Source: Dehalococcoidia bacterium
Lineage (GTDB): Bacteria > Chloroflexota > Dehalococcoidia > Dehalococcoidales > RBG-16-60-22
Assembly: GCA_003141235.1 (NCBI GenBank)
Contig: PLLL01000092.1
Location: 1,891 to 65,890 of the forward strand
Length of the DNA stretch: 64,000 nt
Reading direction: 5' to 3'
Shown: positions 58,445 through 64,000 of the stretch, piece by piece
How the letters are laid out: every line of letters starts with the position of its first letter
How positions within the stretch are numbered: the first letter of the stretch is position 1
Position numbers and translations under genes: made by a program
The notes under the pieces: model-generated
What the model was told of the DNA's origin: nothing
Databases searched by the model: none
The model's input: the letters and a program-made list of their open reading frames with translations, nothing else

Positions 58445-58603
58445 AATATACTGGCGTATAAAAAATTGCAGTAAAAGCGGTAGTGTATCAGTTTGAACTT
58501 AACGATTTGCCTTGCCTGTGCAGGACTTTATTCTCATAATAACAATGACTAACGATGTATTGAATTAAGGCATAGCCGTGCTTAAGCTTATAGCGGGAGG
58601 CAC

Positions 58604-59386
58604 ATGGTGAAGGCTAATACAACGTTACTTCGCAGATTCGTGTCATTGGTAAAATTTCTACCAATCATTGCTTTGATTATTGGCCTGGATGGGTGCGCGA
58701 CCATTAACATTCCGCCAAATCCGGCTTCTGCCCCTATCCCATCTCCAGCACCACCAATATCGTCACCTGTAGTTCCCTCAGCACCCGTATCTACTCTCCC
58801 TGTTGCACCTGCACCACCAATATCGTCACCTGTAGTTCCCTCAGTACCCGTATCTACTCTCCCTGTTACATCTACAACACCAATATCGTCACCTGTCATG
58901 AGACTGAGCACAAATGGCAGTAATCTCGGCACTCAGTTGGACATAAAAGGTGCTAACGTTAAATCGAATGCCATCACACCTACAAAATATGATGATGTTA
59001 TAAATTTCTTAGAAAAAGACGATACATATAAAATACTATATAAGCCGGGTCATTTTGTCTGTTGGAATTTCGCCAAACGATTACAAGACCATGCGGTGAA
59101 ATCAGATATAAGTTGTGCTGTGGTTACGTTAGCATGGGGCACCGGTCACAGAAGTCATGTAATCGACGCTTTTAAGACTGATGAAGGGCTTATTTGGGTA
59201 GACGCTACGGGAAGTCATTTAAAAAAAATAATGGGGCATTTTCAAATACAAAAACCGATGGTAAAAGGCGATAATTATGTGTATGAAGAAACAGGAGGAT
59301 TACCGCCAGAAAAAGTTACTTTAAATGCTGTTACTTATAGCTGGCAAGTGGGAGATTCTCCTCCGGCATCTCTCCGCAATCCTTAG
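58604..59386 (+). CDS. lipoprotein with Pro-rich tandem-repeat stalk and transglutaminase-like cysteine peptidase domain
   Basis: Lipobox LIIGLDGC and the repeats PAPPISSPVVPS(A/V)PVSTLPV. The C-terminal GHFVCWNFAKRL...HRSHVIDAF...LIWVDATG fits a C-H-D transglutaminase-like core. Confidence 0.6.
   Translation: MVKANTTLLRRFVSLVKFLPIIALIIGLDGCATINIPPNPASAPIPSPAPPISSPVVPSAPVSTLPVAPAPPISSPVVPSVPVSTLPVTSTTPISSPVMRLSTNGSNLGTQLDIKGANVKSNAITPTKYDDVINFLEKDDTYKILYKPGHFVCWNFAKRLQDHAVKSDISCAVVTLAWGTGHRSHVIDAFKTDEGLIWVDATGSHLKKIMGHFQIQKPMVKGDNYVYEETGGLPPEKVTLNAVTYSWQVGDSPPASLRNP
58745..58896 (+). repeat. 63-bp in-frame tandem repeat, about 2.4 copies
   Basis: Units start at about 58748, 58811 and 58874 (GCACCACCAATATCGTCACCTGTAGTTCCCTCAG...). 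The first two copies differ at only a few positions. Confidence 0.85.
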
Positions 59387-59504
59387 CCATTCACATCAAA
59401 CCGGCATGAATTAGTAACAGAGTATATCTCCAAAAATGAAGTATCGAGTAGCGGAAGTAGCCTAAAGACCTCAAATTGACCCACTACCGTAAAAGCGCCT
59501 GGCT

Positions 59505-61244: not shown

Positions 61245-61313
61245 ATTTAACCCTCCACGGTTGCTTTTTTATCGGTGATTCGGGATATTCTACATAGAAG
61301 TACCACGCCACGT

Positions 61314-61324
61314 ATTATACCACA
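61314..61324 (-). promoter_or_regulatory. extended -10 promoter element (TGTGGTATAAT) for the CocE/NonD gene
   Basis: The minus strand reads TGTGGTATAAT, about 70 nt upstream of the start codon. Confidence 0.5.
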
Positions 61325-61437
61325 ACGGTCAATATATCCTAAAAAACCCTGAAAGCGGGGTAGTGGGTCAATTTGACTTGGTTTATACTTATTCCTATTT
61401 GTGTTAAAATAGTTGCACTTCTAAACGGGGGTGCAAC

Positions 61438-61899
61438 ATGGCTAACTGTGCGGATTGCGGATTTATTACTTTAAGAGATGAAAAAACTAGAGGATTTATA
61501 GAGGTAGAAGATATATATCGAAAAACTGGAGCATTTTCTAGGAATGGTCTATTTGGAATATACCCTCTATGCTTTAAGGATATTTATTGTATCCCAAATG
61601 AAGTAGAGACAGCACGAAAGAAAGTCGGAGATGAAGTTAAAGATGATGGGGTGGGCGGCCAGATATTACCGCAATATGCCAAGTATATAAAAGAGGTTTT
61701 AGACACATCAAGAGATTGTAACCATTTTAGAAAGTGGCAACAAGGGTATTCCCCCAAGGAGCATCAAGGAATGATAGATAGAGAACACGAGAGACGTTGG
61801 CATATTATTGAAGTTACTCTTATATTAGTTGTAGGCTTAATAGCTAGCATAGGGAGTGCTTTAGTTGGAGCATGGATAGCTAACGGTAGGCTTCCGTAA
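61438..61899 (+). CDS. hypothetical protein with C-terminal TM helix (IS passenger)
   Basis: 153 aa with an N-terminal CxxC (NCADCGF) and the C-terminal TM LILVVGLIASIGSALVGAWI. It lies between the left inverted repeat and the transposase 3' end. Confidence 0.55.
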   Translation: MANCADCGFITLRDEKTRGFIEVEDIYRKTGAFSRNGLFGIYPLCFKDIYCIPNEVETARKKVGDEVKDDGVGGQILPQYAKYIKEVLDTSRDCNHFRKWQQGYSPKEHQGMIDREHERRWHIIEVTLILVVGLIASIGSALVGAWIANGRLP

Positions 61900-61904
61900 A
61901 AGTT

Positions 61905-62741
61905 CTATTTTGCTAGTTTTACAATATCTTCTACGCTCCAAATTCTATTCGTAATTCCGCTTGCCATAGCAGGTGTTCTAGGATAGGGATTAGCAAGTGT
62001 CTTATGAGGTCTAGCGAAGTTATAGTACATGAAATGGAGTGCTACAGCGTATTCCAGGTTCTCTATCTTCTTAGAAAACGCGTTGGTTAATCTAGTAAAA
62101 CGTCTCATGCTCATTCTCATGGTAAGGTTCTGACGCTCTACAAAGCTCGTAGAGATAAATTTATCATCGGGGTTGCCGCGAATAATTTGTTTTTCTGTTC
62201 CTAGACATATTGCCGGACTATATCGTTTTTCGCCCTCTGATTCTTTGCCGTATAACTTATTAAGCATGGCATAATCAATATCTATACCGAAAGCATCTTC
62301 TACAGTGTTGAGATACGCTTTATTACCATCGGTTGTTAATTGAATCCTGTTTAAAAGTCTATCCTTAGCATCGTTAATAAAATGGGTAGCACATTCAATG
62401 TTTCTTAGGCCGACCAGAAAGCTAACACATAATTTAGTATCAGCGTCCAGAGCGACCCAAGTCCAAACATCACCATAACCGAATTTACCTTGTTTATTTT
62501 CAGGGACGTTCTTTTGTTTGGCATAGCAGAATGACCAAATCTCGTCACATTGAATATGCTTTGAATTGAGGTTAATGAGGGTTTTATCCTGATATAGAGC
62601 GCAAGCCTTACCTACAGACGTTAAGAGACGTGTCACAGTGCCTTTAGCAGTTCCGGTCATTCGGCAAGTGGCACGGATTGAATTACCTTCAACTAGAGCG
62701 GTTATTACCTGCACCTGTTTTTCAATGCTTATCTTATTCAT
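61905..62741 (-). CDS. IS1-family transposase (single fused ORF)
   Basis: N-terminal HTH (SIRATCRMTGTAKGTVTRLL). ...QCDEIWSFCYAKQKN..., ...LTTDGNKAY... and ...ERQNLTMRMSMRRFTRLTNAFSKK...YNF.RPH match IS1 InsAB-type DDE transposases. I place the start at MNKISI (62741), downstream of the TTGACA-17-TATAAT promoter. Confidence 0.8.
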   Translation of the reverse strand: MNKISIEKQVQVITALVEGNSIRATCRMTGTAKGTVTRLLTSVGKACALYQDKTLINLNSKHIQCDEIWSFCYAKQKNVPENKQGKFGYGDVWTWVALDADTKLCVSFLVGLRNIECATHFINDAKDRLLNRIQLTTDGNKAYLNTVEDAFGIDIDYAMLNKLYGKESEGEKRYSPAICLGTEKQIIRGNPDDKFISTSFVERQNLTMRMSMRRFTRLTNAFSKKIENLEYAVALHFMYYNFARPHKTLANPYPRTPAMASGITNRIWSVEDIVKLAK

Positions 62742-62760
62742 ATCTAACCTCACTAGATAT

Positions 62761-62789
62761 ATTATACATGACCGCTCAAGCATTGTCAA
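62761..62789 (-). promoter_or_regulatory. consensus promoter of the transposase gene
   Basis: On the minus strand: TTGACA (62784-89), 17 nt, TATAAT (62761-66). The block 62761-62825 is a diverged duplicate of 63511-63570. Confidence 0.7.
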
Positions 62790-62850
62790 TAGTAAATAGG
62801 TTAATTTGAGATAAATATTTTGTAGGAGCTTTATATGGAATGGATAGGAA

Positions 62851-63111
62851 CTATGTATTTTTCTGACGGGGACGACGTGCTAGAAATGAAACAATTAAAT
62901 GATTCCCAAGTAGTAAAAACGTATGTGAAATTATCTCCCAATGACCACCCCGAACCTCATTTAGATTCTCTGGAAGGAGCATCATAGGCTTATTAAGATT
63001 TAGTGTTATTAACTTGCATAAACCACTGGCATCAAGTTTTGCATCTTCGGGACTAAAATCAATTGCAGTTTGGATAGTTGTGTATTCGTATTTTTTATTT
63101 TGCCCAAACAT
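62851..63111 (-). CDS. hypothetical protein (86 aa, IS passenger)
   Basis: I place the start at MFGQNK (63111), with GGAGGTG 7 nt upstream. I recognise no family. Confidence 0.5.
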   Translation of the reverse strand: MFGQNKKYEYTTIQTAIDFSPEDAKLDASGLCKLITLNLNKPMMLLPENLNEVRGGHWEIISHTFLLLGNHLIVSFLARRPRQKNT

Positions 63112-63134
63112 CTCTATCACCTCCAAAATAATTT

Positions 63135-63308
63135 TTACATAGGGGCTTGTCTTAGTTTTTGTATTATTATAATAGGGGTAACAATAATGCCTATAAGTGC
63201 AGTTAATAGACCGATAGGCCAGAACAATATAGTTAAAAATATACTAAGAATTATACCAAAAATAGAGACAATAATCCCTGCGTATATTACCTTTGCTTTA
63301 TAAGACAT
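63135..63308 (-). CDS. small two-TM membrane protein (57 aa, IS passenger)
   Basis: I place the start at MSYKAK (63308). The body is hydrophobic (IYAGIIVSIFGIILSIFLTILFWPIGLLTALIGIIV). It overlaps the upstream ORF by 11 nt. Confidence 0.5.
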   Translation of the reverse strand: MSYKAKVIYAGIIVSIFGIILSIFLTILFWPIGLLTALIGIIVTPIIIIQKLRQAPM

Positions 63309-63504
63309 TTTTATCCTTCCCCCATCTAGAATTAGCAGCCTTTTTAGCAATCTCTTTTCTTTGTTTCGGTGTTAATTTACTCGCTCTAGCCTTACCACCT
63401 TTTAAACCGCCAAGTCTCCCTAGAGCAACGGCGTTAGGATTTTTAGAAAATTCACCAGTAACTTGTCCAACTATTTTAGAAGCTATTACATTTATATCTT
63501 TCAT
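63298..63504 (-). CDS. small basic protein with GRLGG-KGGKARA...RKEIAKKAA..RW motif
   Basis: 68 aa. The motif is common in small phage- or mobile-element-associated proteins, and I do not know its function. A TTGACA-18-TAAAAT promoter lies at 63511-63540. Confidence 0.55.
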   Translation of the reverse strand: MKDINVIASKIVGQVTGEFSKNPNAVALGRLGGLKGGKARASKLTPKQRKEIAKKAANSRWGKDKNVL

Positions 63505-63577
63505 ACCTTAATTTTACATAAGCGGTCAAGCATCTGTCAATAGTACAGAAATTCAAATTGACCCACTACCGAAAGCG

Positions 63578-63597
63578 GGTAGTGTATCACTATGAAT
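63578..63597. repeat. solo IS1-type left end abutting the IS right end
   Basis: GGTAGTGTATCACTATGAAT resembles the left ends at 9912 and 58479. Together with 63553-63570 it forms an imperfect 45-nt palindrome. Confidence 0.5.
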
Positions 63598-63807
63598 TTA
63601 GTTGTTCAGAATTAGCCTGATGAAAACCCCCAAGTATATCATAACTCCTACTGTCATCCAAACTATGGCCAAAACTTTTAGGGATCGCACTTTTTGTTTC
63701 TTTTTATCTTCCGGCGCTGAAAGATATCTTGCTAAATAAAATAGGGGTACTCCAATAGCAATTAGCACTACTCCCATTGACCAGATAATCAAACTATTGG
63801 TATCCAT
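63598..63807 (-). CDS. small two-TM membrane protein (69 aa)
   Basis: AT-rich ORF starting 2 nt after the upstream stop. Hydrophobic helices IIWSMGVVLIAIGVPLFYL and LAIVWMTVGVMIYLGVFI. Confidence 0.5.
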   Translation of the reverse strand: MDTNSLIIWSMGVVLIAIGVPLFYLARYLSAPEDKKKQKVRSLKVLAIVWMTVGVMIYLGVFIRLILNN

Positions 63808-63809
63808 TT

Positions 63810-64000
63810 TTAGCTACCTCCCTTTGCCGCTTTCAGGTTTTTCCTCAGGGCCGCGGTAGCGGTAGCATCCACCTTGATGGTCTCGGGATTCTTCGGGTCT
63901 TTTTGTATCAGTACCACGCCGTAAACATCTTTCGCTCTTTTGAACGAAACCAGCCCTTCAATAGCGCCAAACCGCACTTTTTCCGGGTCTCTATCCAGCG
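63810..64000 (-). CDS. hydantoinase B/oxoprolinase-family protein, C-terminal end (5' part outside the window)
   Basis: The minus-strand translation ...LDRDPEKVRFGAIEGLVSFKRAKDVYGVVLIQKDPKNPETIKVDATATAALRKNL... matches the conserved HyuB-type C-terminus (RDPE.V..DV..G.VS...A...YGVV...D...T..LR). It is absent from the ORF track because it has no start codon in the window. Confidence 0.75.
   Translation of the reverse strand, partial: LDRDPEKVRFGAIEGLVSFKRAKDVYGVVLIQKDPKNPETIKVDATATAALRKNLKAAKGGS

Follow-up and report, generated by a model that had tools for sequence, protein, structure and literature searches.

A probable cargo-carrying insertion sequence of a single-ORF IS1 clade in a Dehalococcoidia genome

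The IS1 family, as kept by ISfinder, retains groups in which the transposase is specified by a single open reading frame (ORF), and elements of the ISMhu11 subgroup range up to about 4.6 kb, a size range that would accommodate the present element. In other families of insertion sequences (IS), passenger genes have been described from occasional members (e.g. IS1595) or from a single member (ISDsp3 of IS6). Elements of this kind are termed transporter IS (tIS), an IS unit that carries inside its own ends a transposase together with genes unrelated to transposition (PMC3129680, PMC7986276). The element described here occupies nt 61359-63570 of a 64,000 nt stretch of contig PLLL01000092.1 from a Dehalococcoidia bacterium (GCA_003141235.1); this whole stretch is referred to below as the window. 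The element is very probably an intact, cargo-carrying IS belonging to a very large single-ORF clade of IS1.

Its limits are set by two arms of the sequence GGTAGTGGGTCAATTTGA, found by repeat and 18-mer searches at nt 61359-61376 (plus strand) and nt 63553-63570 (minus strand). They match at 18/18 nt, or at 20/21 nt when extended, and in transposase orientation they are the right terminal inverted repeat (IRR, downstream of the transposase gene) and the left terminal inverted repeat (IRL, next to a small gene named below for its KGG motif). Directly outside both arms stands the 8-bp direct repeat GAAAGCGG, the target-site duplication, with a left copy at nt 61351-61358 and an identical right copy at nt 63571-63578; the empty site before insertion is reconstructed as ...CCCTGAAAGCGGGTAGTGTATC... 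A sequence-only reading of the window had proposed an intact IS with perfect 18-bp ends, GGnnnTG termini and an 8-bp duplication. All of this was borne out, both ends beginning with GGTAGTG, and the ORFs it had listed (a 278-aa transposase, proteins of 153 and 86 aa, a peptide with two transmembrane (TM) segments and the KGG protein) are present where it had placed them. At 2212 bp the element holds more than twice the DNA that the transposase requires, as that reading had also remarked. Its GC content is 37.1%, compared with 50.6% for the rest of the window. Neither Rfam families nor tRNAs were found in or near it, and it is not a composite transposon, there being only one transposase gene and no internal end sequence between nt 61376 and 63553.

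An 18-mer scan of the window, allowing up to three mismatches, returned five end-like sites, where 0.04 would be expected from shuffled sequence. Besides the two arms these lie at nt 9912, 58479 and 59471-59488. The occurrence of solo ends of the family in the window (nt 9912 and 63578) would suit an alternative in which the outer repeats do not bound one element, and a minimal IS of about 1 kb lies beside host DNA and a stray solo end. That arrangement is extremely improbable, because the scan found no internal end-like sequence at nt 61376-63553, GC is uniformly low (31-40%) along the whole 2.2 kb, the 8-bp duplication flanks the outer ends, and all 64 relatives described below have the same long layout, 55 of them with perfect outer duplications.

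The transposase gene (nt 61905-62741, minus strand), recognised from its ORF and profile matches, codes for a 278-aa protein with an N-terminal helix-turn-helix (HTH) and a DDE core (D66, D138, E202). A single ORF spans both parts, and there is no insA/insB' frameshift pair. More than 8000 homologs are present in the databases, mostly also of 278 aa; hundreds of them, 71-85% identical, are named 'IS1 family transposase', and one protein of 73% identity is ISNisp5 according to NCBI. The window transposase and 30 relatives (31 members) were aligned and compared, as a profile, with the IS1A proteins of E. coli K-12 (NC_000913) using hhalign. Residues 65-234 aligned with InsB (probability 89.6%, E 1.9e-6), placing D66, D138 and E202 on the InsB motifs MDEQW, TDGW and ERHN, with about 40 extra residues between the second D and the E. 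Residues 10-45 aligned with the HTH of InsA (InsA residues 54-89; probability 68.6%, E 4.6e-5), a weak match but in the expected order. The zinc finger of InsA has no counterpart, as the alignment begins only at InsA residue 54, and the first 46 residues of the transposase include one Cys and no CxxC pair. PF03400 was matched by all 31 members, and the window protein retains every residue that is invariant in the alignment, including D66, D138 and E202.

Together with the GGTAGTG ends and the 8-bp duplications, these alignments support the earlier assignment of the transposase to IS1 in its single-ORF form. Weighing against it, the best family matches of the window protein taken alone fall just under the curated cut-offs, at 23.7 bits for PF03400 (cut-off 24.1) and 49.7 bits for NCBIfam IS1 (cut-off 100). 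It could also be argued that the enzyme belongs to another DDE family (IS1595, IS6 or IS481) and that its IS1-like ends are convergent, given that NCBIfam returned weak matches to IS1595 (21.3 bits), IS481 (21.7 bits) and IS6 (16.5 bits), Pfam returned rve_3, and PF13610 (IS240/IS6-type DDE) was matched by 24 of the 31 members. This is very improbable: IS1 is the best match in both libraries, the InsB and InsA alignments span the HTH and DDE core in the IS1 order, the ends and duplications fit IS1, and the relatives carry the names 'IS1 family transposase' or 'ISNisp5'.

The comparison with E. coli IS1A can be extended to the whole element. In both, a DDE core of InsB type is preceded by an HTH resembling the C-terminal HTH of InsA, the ends begin GGT..TG (GGTGATG and GGTAATG in IS1A), the duplication lies within the 8-9 bp of IS1, and a gene for a small basic protein sits just inside the left end with its promoter adjoining that end. 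The window element differs in having one transposase ORF with no -1 frameshift, no zinc finger and the extra residues before the E. Its small protein, which lacks cysteines, shows no relationship to InsA and is in no case fused to the transposase, and elements of its family carry two cargo bays and measure 2.0-4.5 kb, whereas IS1 is 768 bp. The single-ORF elements typified by ISNisp5 share the transposase clade, the length of 278 aa and the 71-85% identity noted above for named database proteins.

Relatives were found by scanning one genome per species, which gave 80 loci with transposases 56-74% identical. They are spread across Dehalococcoidia, Actinomycetota, Acidobacteriota, Nitrospirota, several proteobacterial classes, Planctomycetota, Verrucomicrobiota, Patescibacteria and two archaea. 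Family counts given here rest on the 64 loci for which both ends were found, representing at least ten phyla. The end consensus is near-invariant across the 64 (GGTAGTG, then GGT, TAT, TCT or CAT, then CA(A/G/T)TTTGA), and 55 elements are flanked by perfect 8-bp duplications; the 18-mer of the window element, or a variant with one to three mismatches, terminates all 64. The smallest of these elements measures 1961 bp and the largest 4532 bp, with a median near 2990 bp; elements of minimal size are not among them. Within the duplication, C is mildly favoured at position 1 and G at position 8. A palindromic target preference, hinted at by L017, L018 and L024, was rejected, as the mean number of symmetric pairs was 1.07 against 1.0 expected.

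Short pairs of ends, 129-616 bp in length, are present in viral contigs as well as among the relatives. An exact match to the end, GGTAGTGGGTCARTTTGA, is found in at least 120 stretches of viral contigs from IMG/VR (L106-L185), where some inverted end pairs are 290-616 bp apart, resembling MITEs (miniature transposable elements with inverted repeats), and others are separated by 1.8-4.7 kb, as expected of full elements. Phages and prophages may help to explain the spread of the element family across phyla.

The closest relative of the window element is L099, with a transposase 85% identical. Homology between the two is confined to three blocks (positions are those of the element in transposase orientation): positions 1-261, comprising the left end, the KGG promoter and the KGG gene; positions 746-1666, which begin 84 nt before the ATG of the transposase gene and run as far as its stop codon; and the final 19 nt. 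The two intervening segments are unrelated to L099 and are here called bay 1 (positions 262-745, from the KGG stop to the transposase promoter) and bay 2 (positions 1667-2193, from the transposase stop to the right end).

Clustering of all ORFs from the 64 elements produced two near-universal families. One is the transposase and the other is a small basic protein, represented in the window by a 68-aa product with the motif GRLGGLKGGKARA..LTPKQRKEIAKKAA..RW (nt 63298-63504, minus strand). A homolog of this KGG protein is encoded by 61 of the 64 elements, on the transposase strand in 59 and starting no more than 100 nt from the left end in 50. In 57 elements the small ORF carries the motif GGxARA, and two of the three elements that lack the gene encode a larger protein with the motif at its N-terminus. 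The gene also appears to be co-inherited with the transposase at shallow evolutionary depth: in 22 of 55 elements, where 5.1 were expected, the nearest transposase partner was one of the five best KGG partners, and for all pairs with transposase identity of at least 83% the KGG partner ranked between 1 and 5. Set against this, KGG and transposase identities are not significantly correlated over all pairs (rho 0.08, a value reached in 83 of 500 permutations). The presence of the gene in 61/64 elements at a fixed place and strand, together with the shallow co-inheritance, indicates that it is conserved backbone and not cargo.

The sequence-only reading had counted four passenger ORFs. Three of them (57, 86 and 153 aa) are indeed variable cargo, but the fourth, the KGG ORF, has to be removed from that list. 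The version with four unrelated passengers inside an ordinary single-ORF IS1 element draws on two facts, that no Pfam or NCBIfam family could be assigned to any of the four ORFs and that the element is more than twice the size needed for its transposase. It is nonetheless improbable in view of the fixed position and strand of the KGG ORF in 61/64 relatives and its inheritance with the transposase at shallow depth. In addition, the KGG gene and its promoter lie inside a block homologous with L099, while the other three ORFs occupy the non-homologous segments.

The KGG family is large. A protein search gave matches for 7865 of the 8000 scored candidates, all named hypothetical and lacking a Pfam domain, and a profile search collected 12,046 representatives of 50%-identity clusters at E <=0.001. 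The AlphaFold2 model of the window protein has three helices, with a predicted local distance difference test (pLDDT) score of 71. Foldseek returned no relative from the PDB, and when the PDB sequences were searched with a profile nothing better than a match at chance level emerged. The sole family match was to PHROG 2384 (E 1e-7), which seems to correspond to P63C-domain proteins, a frequent type of cargo with the same N-terminal motif. By analogy with InsA, which it resembles in position and size, the KGG protein could be an element-encoded DNA-binding regulator or cofactor, a proposal to which we give somewhat less than an even chance. Arguing against any firm view of its role are the lack of a Pfam domain and of a PDB relative, and a model of moderate confidence (pLDDT 71).

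P63C-domain proteins of about 340-365 aa are encoded as cargo by five relatives (element coordinates: L011, 286-1380; L017, 156-1235; L044, 280-1338; L080, 206-1225; L090, 1417-2514). Their N-terminal motif (KGG/ARA..LTPEQR..IA.KAA..RW) is that of the KGG protein, and in L017 and L080 the small KGG gene itself is absent or lacks the motif. The occurrence of the motif in both a backbone protein and P63C cargo suggests a portable module. A literature search for P63C returned unrelated uses of the term only.

Promoter scanning of nt 61250-63900 placed the two best sigma-70-like sites on the minus strand, one upstream of each backbone gene. The predicted transposase promoter (nt 62761-62789, minus strand) is TTGACA-17 nt-TATAAT and agrees with the consensus at 12/12 positions. 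The predicted KGG promoter (nt 63511-63540, minus strand) is TTGACA-18 nt-TAAAAT (11/12), and its -10 hexamer ends only 6 nt before the ATG, which suggests that the KGG mRNA is leaderless. Comparison with relatives reveals a palindrome shared within the family, GCTTGA-N4-TCAAGC, in the spacer of the transposase promoter, here GCTTGAGCGGTCATGT (nt 62766-62781, minus strand), and a degenerate copy, GCTTGACCGCTTATGT, is found in the spacer of the KGG promoter. A survey of regulatory sequences covered L011-L090 and took in, for every element, its first 80 nt and the 90 nt preceding the transposase gene. Of 61 relatives, 29 had the palindrome no more than 70 nt upstream of the transposase gene and 16 had it near the left end; shuffled versions of all element DNA gave a total of about 6.7 sites. 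It is, on the other hand, detectable in only about half of the relatives. A common start of the KGG gene, ATGCCTAAGCGGTCAAGC (MPKRSS), itself comes close to copying the palindrome, so that a DNA signal may account for part of the N-terminal conservation of the KGG protein. Conserved palindromes within promoters would call for a binding protein, and the candidates are the KGG protein, the transposase HTH, or both. Many transposase genes of the relatives also look leaderless, with the arrangement TATAAT-GGTCAGT-ATG; the sequence GGTCAGTaTG resembles the inner part of the element end, GGTCAGTtTG.

The bays of this copy hold small ORFs that are specific to its lineage. In bay 2, convergent with the transposase gene, lies an ORF of 153 aa with an N-terminal CxxC and a C-terminal TM segment (nt 61438-61899, plus strand). 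It had no match in Pfam, NCBIfam, PHROG or PADLOC, and a search of 5.8 billion proteins found no homolog other than itself. A pairwise comparison with the 155-aa ORF in bay 2 of L026 did, however, show 26% identity over the full length (E 9e-14), and the two share CxxCGF, PxCF and PKEH..M.DR motifs as well as the C-terminal TM segment. Because this homolog occupies the same bay and has the same motifs, the 153-aa ORF is accepted as a gene. Bay 1 contains an ORF of 57 aa with two predicted TM segments (nt 63135-63308, minus strand; 71 aa if started from the TTG at nt 63350), which overlaps the end of the KGG gene by 11 nt and has neither family matches nor a homolog in the other loci. It also contains an ORF of 86 aa (nt 62851-63111, minus strand; 91 aa from a TTG) with GGAGGTGA located 6-7 nt upstream. 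An antisense ORF of 50 aa (nt 62835-62987, plus strand) overlaps the latter, gene-calling pipelines disagree on which of the two is called, and it is likely that only one is real; no homologs or family matches were found for either. The 57- and 86-aa ORFs, being without a homolog anywhere, and the second of them overlapped on the opposite strand, may not be genes at all.

Pfam, NCBIfam, PHROGs and PADLOC were blank for all four cargo ORFs (57, 86, 50 and 153 aa), the defence and toxin-antitoxin (TA) libraries giving no significant match to the cargo of this copy. No TA-like pair, for which the sequence-only reading had advised a check, was recognised among this cargo with these libraries. As to whether the passengers are conserved in other copies, a point also raised by the sequence-only reading, the answer is yes for the KGG gene (61/64), is limited to one homolog (L026) for the 153-aa ORF, and is no for the 57- and 86-aa ORFs. 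Judged by its gene content, the element can be classed as a tIS, with three ORFs that appear unrelated to transposition lying inside its ends, in segments non-homologous with L099.

Cargo in two fixed bays is a property of all 64 sampled elements, and the content of the bays differs even between elements with near-identical backbones, such as L035/L036 (transposases 95% identical), L046/L047 (96%) and L099 compared with the window element (85%). Two pairs, L046/L047 and L017/L018, occupy the same site, with the same duplication and syntenic flanks that are 79-88% identical, but have unrelated bays. Comparison of each element with its 1.5-kb flanks showed that the backbones in these pairs are homologous at about the identity of the flanks. 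The simplest reading of these sequences is an old insertion in which cargo would have been replaced in place by recombination with another family member. Against in-place turnover, the same-site pairs could be independent insertions into a preferred target.

Recognisable genes are common in the bays of relatives. The combination of HTH_3 and Peptidase_M78 with a 160-aa partner was found at 18 loci, and other cargo identified with Pfam includes Gp49 + HTH_3, HicB, PemK/MazF, NYN, dCTP-deaminase-like, SDH-type protease, P63C, KilA-N/BstA, STAND and AAA NTPases, and D12 and C5 methyltransferases. PADLOC matched PDC-S42 (4e-72), HEC-09 (8.5e-45), PD-Lambda-5_B (3.8e-41) and BstA. The recognisable TA pairs (Gp49 + HTH_3, HicB, PemK) lie in the same bays as the cargo of the window element. 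From the TA and defence families among this cargo it follows that the family mainly moves TA and defence-type genes.

These features distinguish the clade from the tIS described in IS1595 and IS6 (ISDsp3), which likewise have their own ends and transposase with genes inside that are unrelated to transposition. Here, by contrast, all 64 sampled elements carry cargo, the bays are two and fixed, their contents differ on near-identical backbones, and an accessory gene is conserved. A functional analogy can also be drawn with Tn7-like transposons and integrons, in which a conserved mobility backbone is joined to fast-changing TA and defence cargo, but the present element has no integrase, attC-type sites, TnsABCD machinery or targeting module, and is a ten-fold smaller unit. 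Searches of the available literature found no description of the fixed architecture, accessory gene, cargo turnover or TA/defence cargo of this clade, and no paper mentioning ISMhu11 or ISNisp5. The element is of a known kind, an IS1-family tIS, while the architecture and cargo turnover of its clade are a variant, part of which may be recorded in the ISfinder entry for ISNisp5.

A working model of the element can be proposed from its anatomy and from what is known of IS1 biology. Its backbone of about 1.2 kb consists of the left end, the KGG promoter and gene, the transposase promoter with its palindrome, the transposase gene and the right end, interrupted by two variable bays that in this copy hold three small, lineage-specific ORFs. 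The transposase would bind the conserved ends through its InsA-like HTH, and its DDE site would cut the element and join it into target cuts staggered by 8 bp, giving the GAAAGCGG duplication. The sites of action of the KGG protein may be the palindrome of the two promoters, the ends, or both. Cargo would be exchanged between elements by homologous recombination across conserved backbone segments, in keeping with the comparison of relatives. Across the family the bays hold mostly toxin-antitoxin and anti-phage-type genes. The copy in the window very probably arrived by horizontal transfer, landing beside the end of an older, decayed relative. In a bolder form of this model, which we consider doubtful, the KGG protein would be an obligatory DNA-binding partner that replaces InsA at the promoter palindrome, the ends or both. 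The clade, a subgroup of IS1 not yet described, would then shuttle defence genes across phyla as a miniature platform, its two bays being refilled with toxin-antitoxin and anti-phage genes through recombination guided by the backbone. If so, the two-TM peptide and the CxxC/TM protein would be membrane-acting effector or immunity genes.

As a single copy, the element is a matter of routine annotation, one more member of the IS1 family, but the family around it deserves attention. In environmental genomes this is one of the more abundant transposase clades, and its 18-nt ends hardly vary between Dehalococcoidia and groups such as Acidobacteriota, Nitrospira, Proteobacteria, Planctomycetota or the archaea. 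Its cargo turns over faster than its backbone. The KGG proteins constitute a small-protein family of some 12,000 clusters without domain assignment or structure. Should they be regulators or cofactors of transposition, they would show how relatives of IS1 manage without the InsA zinc finger. Should the bays be slots for defence genes, the elements would provide a compact, tractable system for studying the spread of such genes and a source of candidate new defence or toxin genes, the three ORFs of the window element among them. For annotation, it is worth recording that the backbone KGG gene receives the label hypothetical from gene callers, whose calls for the cargo ORFs are also at variance.

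The ends and genes of the element are intact and its GC content is set apart from that of the host, which speaks for a copy that is recent and potentially active. Several observations point the other way. Every contig returned for the exact transposase and for the adjacent S15 peptidase has the same gene order (hydantoinase A/B, 69-aa ORF, element, S15 peptidase), and 15 contigs from several samples span the whole element at this one locus with no differences. Exact-protein look-ups of contigs with the transposase and the S15 peptidase revealed no empty site or insertion polymorphism, and the window contains no second intact copy, nt 61905-62741 being its only full transposase gene. As the element is fixed and identical, with no empty site and no second copy in the window, its present-day mobility is at most potential. 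A somewhat unlikely alternative takes this further, the element being rightly classed but a dead or domesticated copy, immobile here and retained only as a recent arrival or for the usefulness of its cargo. Its fixation at one locus in the 15 contigs, the single full transposase gene in 64 kb and the neighbouring relics, which show that the family decays here, all suit this view. They have to be set against the perfect 18-nt ends, the retention of all family-invariant transposase residues, two promoters at or near consensus, a GC content (37% against 50.6%) that argues for recent arrival, and the presence, only 1.9 kb away, of a cassette whose right end is identical and whose duplication is intact.

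That cassette (nt 58479-59488, plus strand; 1010 bp) was found by the end search and has hybrid ends, GGTAGTGTATCAGTTTGA of the GTATCAG type and GGTAGTGGGTCAATTTGA of the GGGTCAA type, flanked by the 8-bp duplication GTAAAAGC (nt 58471-58478 and 59489-59496). Hybrid GTATCA/GGGTCA ends also occur on full elements with target duplications (L049, L103). The cassette contains one ORF (nt 58604-59386) for a lipoprotein-like protein of 260 aa with proline-rich repeats, the called length of which differs among contigs of the population (259, 238, or 162 + 103 aa), and shows no similarity to the transposase or KGG genes and no family matches. With IS-type ends, a duplication and a gene but no transposase, it is a non-autonomous mobile insertion cassette (MIC) as defined in PMC3129680. 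The likeness to MICs (e.g. MIC231) and MITEs holds for this unit and not for the autonomous element. The outer ends at nt 58479 (plus strand) and nt 63570 (minus strand) are oriented such that they could mobilise the intervening S15 peptidase gene as a 5.1-kb composite, but the flanking sequences differ (GTAAAAGC and GAAAGCGG) and so give no sign that such a composite has moved.

Remains of two further relatives lie in the window, and the intact element is a plausible source of transposase for them and for the cassette, as the sequence-only reading had proposed. The first is a truncated sister element (nt 9912-11115, minus strand), recognised from its end and ORF remains. It retains a GTATCA-type end (nt 9912-9929), a 284-aa NYN-domain ORF (nt 10033-10887, minus strand; Pfam NYN, E 9e-13) and a transposase gene reduced to its last 31 codons (nt 11023-11115, minus strand), which are 71% identical to the intact one; NYN genes are also found in bay 2 of L036, L042 and L083. 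The second (nt 63578-63807), found by end and ORF searches, is probably the remnant of an earlier insertion. It consists of a solo end, GGTAGTGTATCACTATGA (nt 63578-63595), a GTATCA variant that overlaps the right duplication by 1 nt, followed by a 69-aa two-TM ORF (nt 63598-63807, minus strand; GC 37%) that starts 3 nt after the stop of hydantoinase B. The position of the variant end directly after the right duplication implies that the insertion site of the element adjoined the end of an older relative. Landing beside the end of a relative was seen again at L069 (a 129-bp MITE, 8 nt from the left end), L038 and L068. Lastly, a 16-nt inverted match links nt 61343-61358 with nt 63827-63842 (AAAACCCTGAAAGCGG / CCGCTTTCAGGTTTTT), the second arm lying within the last codons of hydantoinase B. 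The pair may derive from an old terminator hairpin whose two arms were split by the insertions, or the match may be due to chance.

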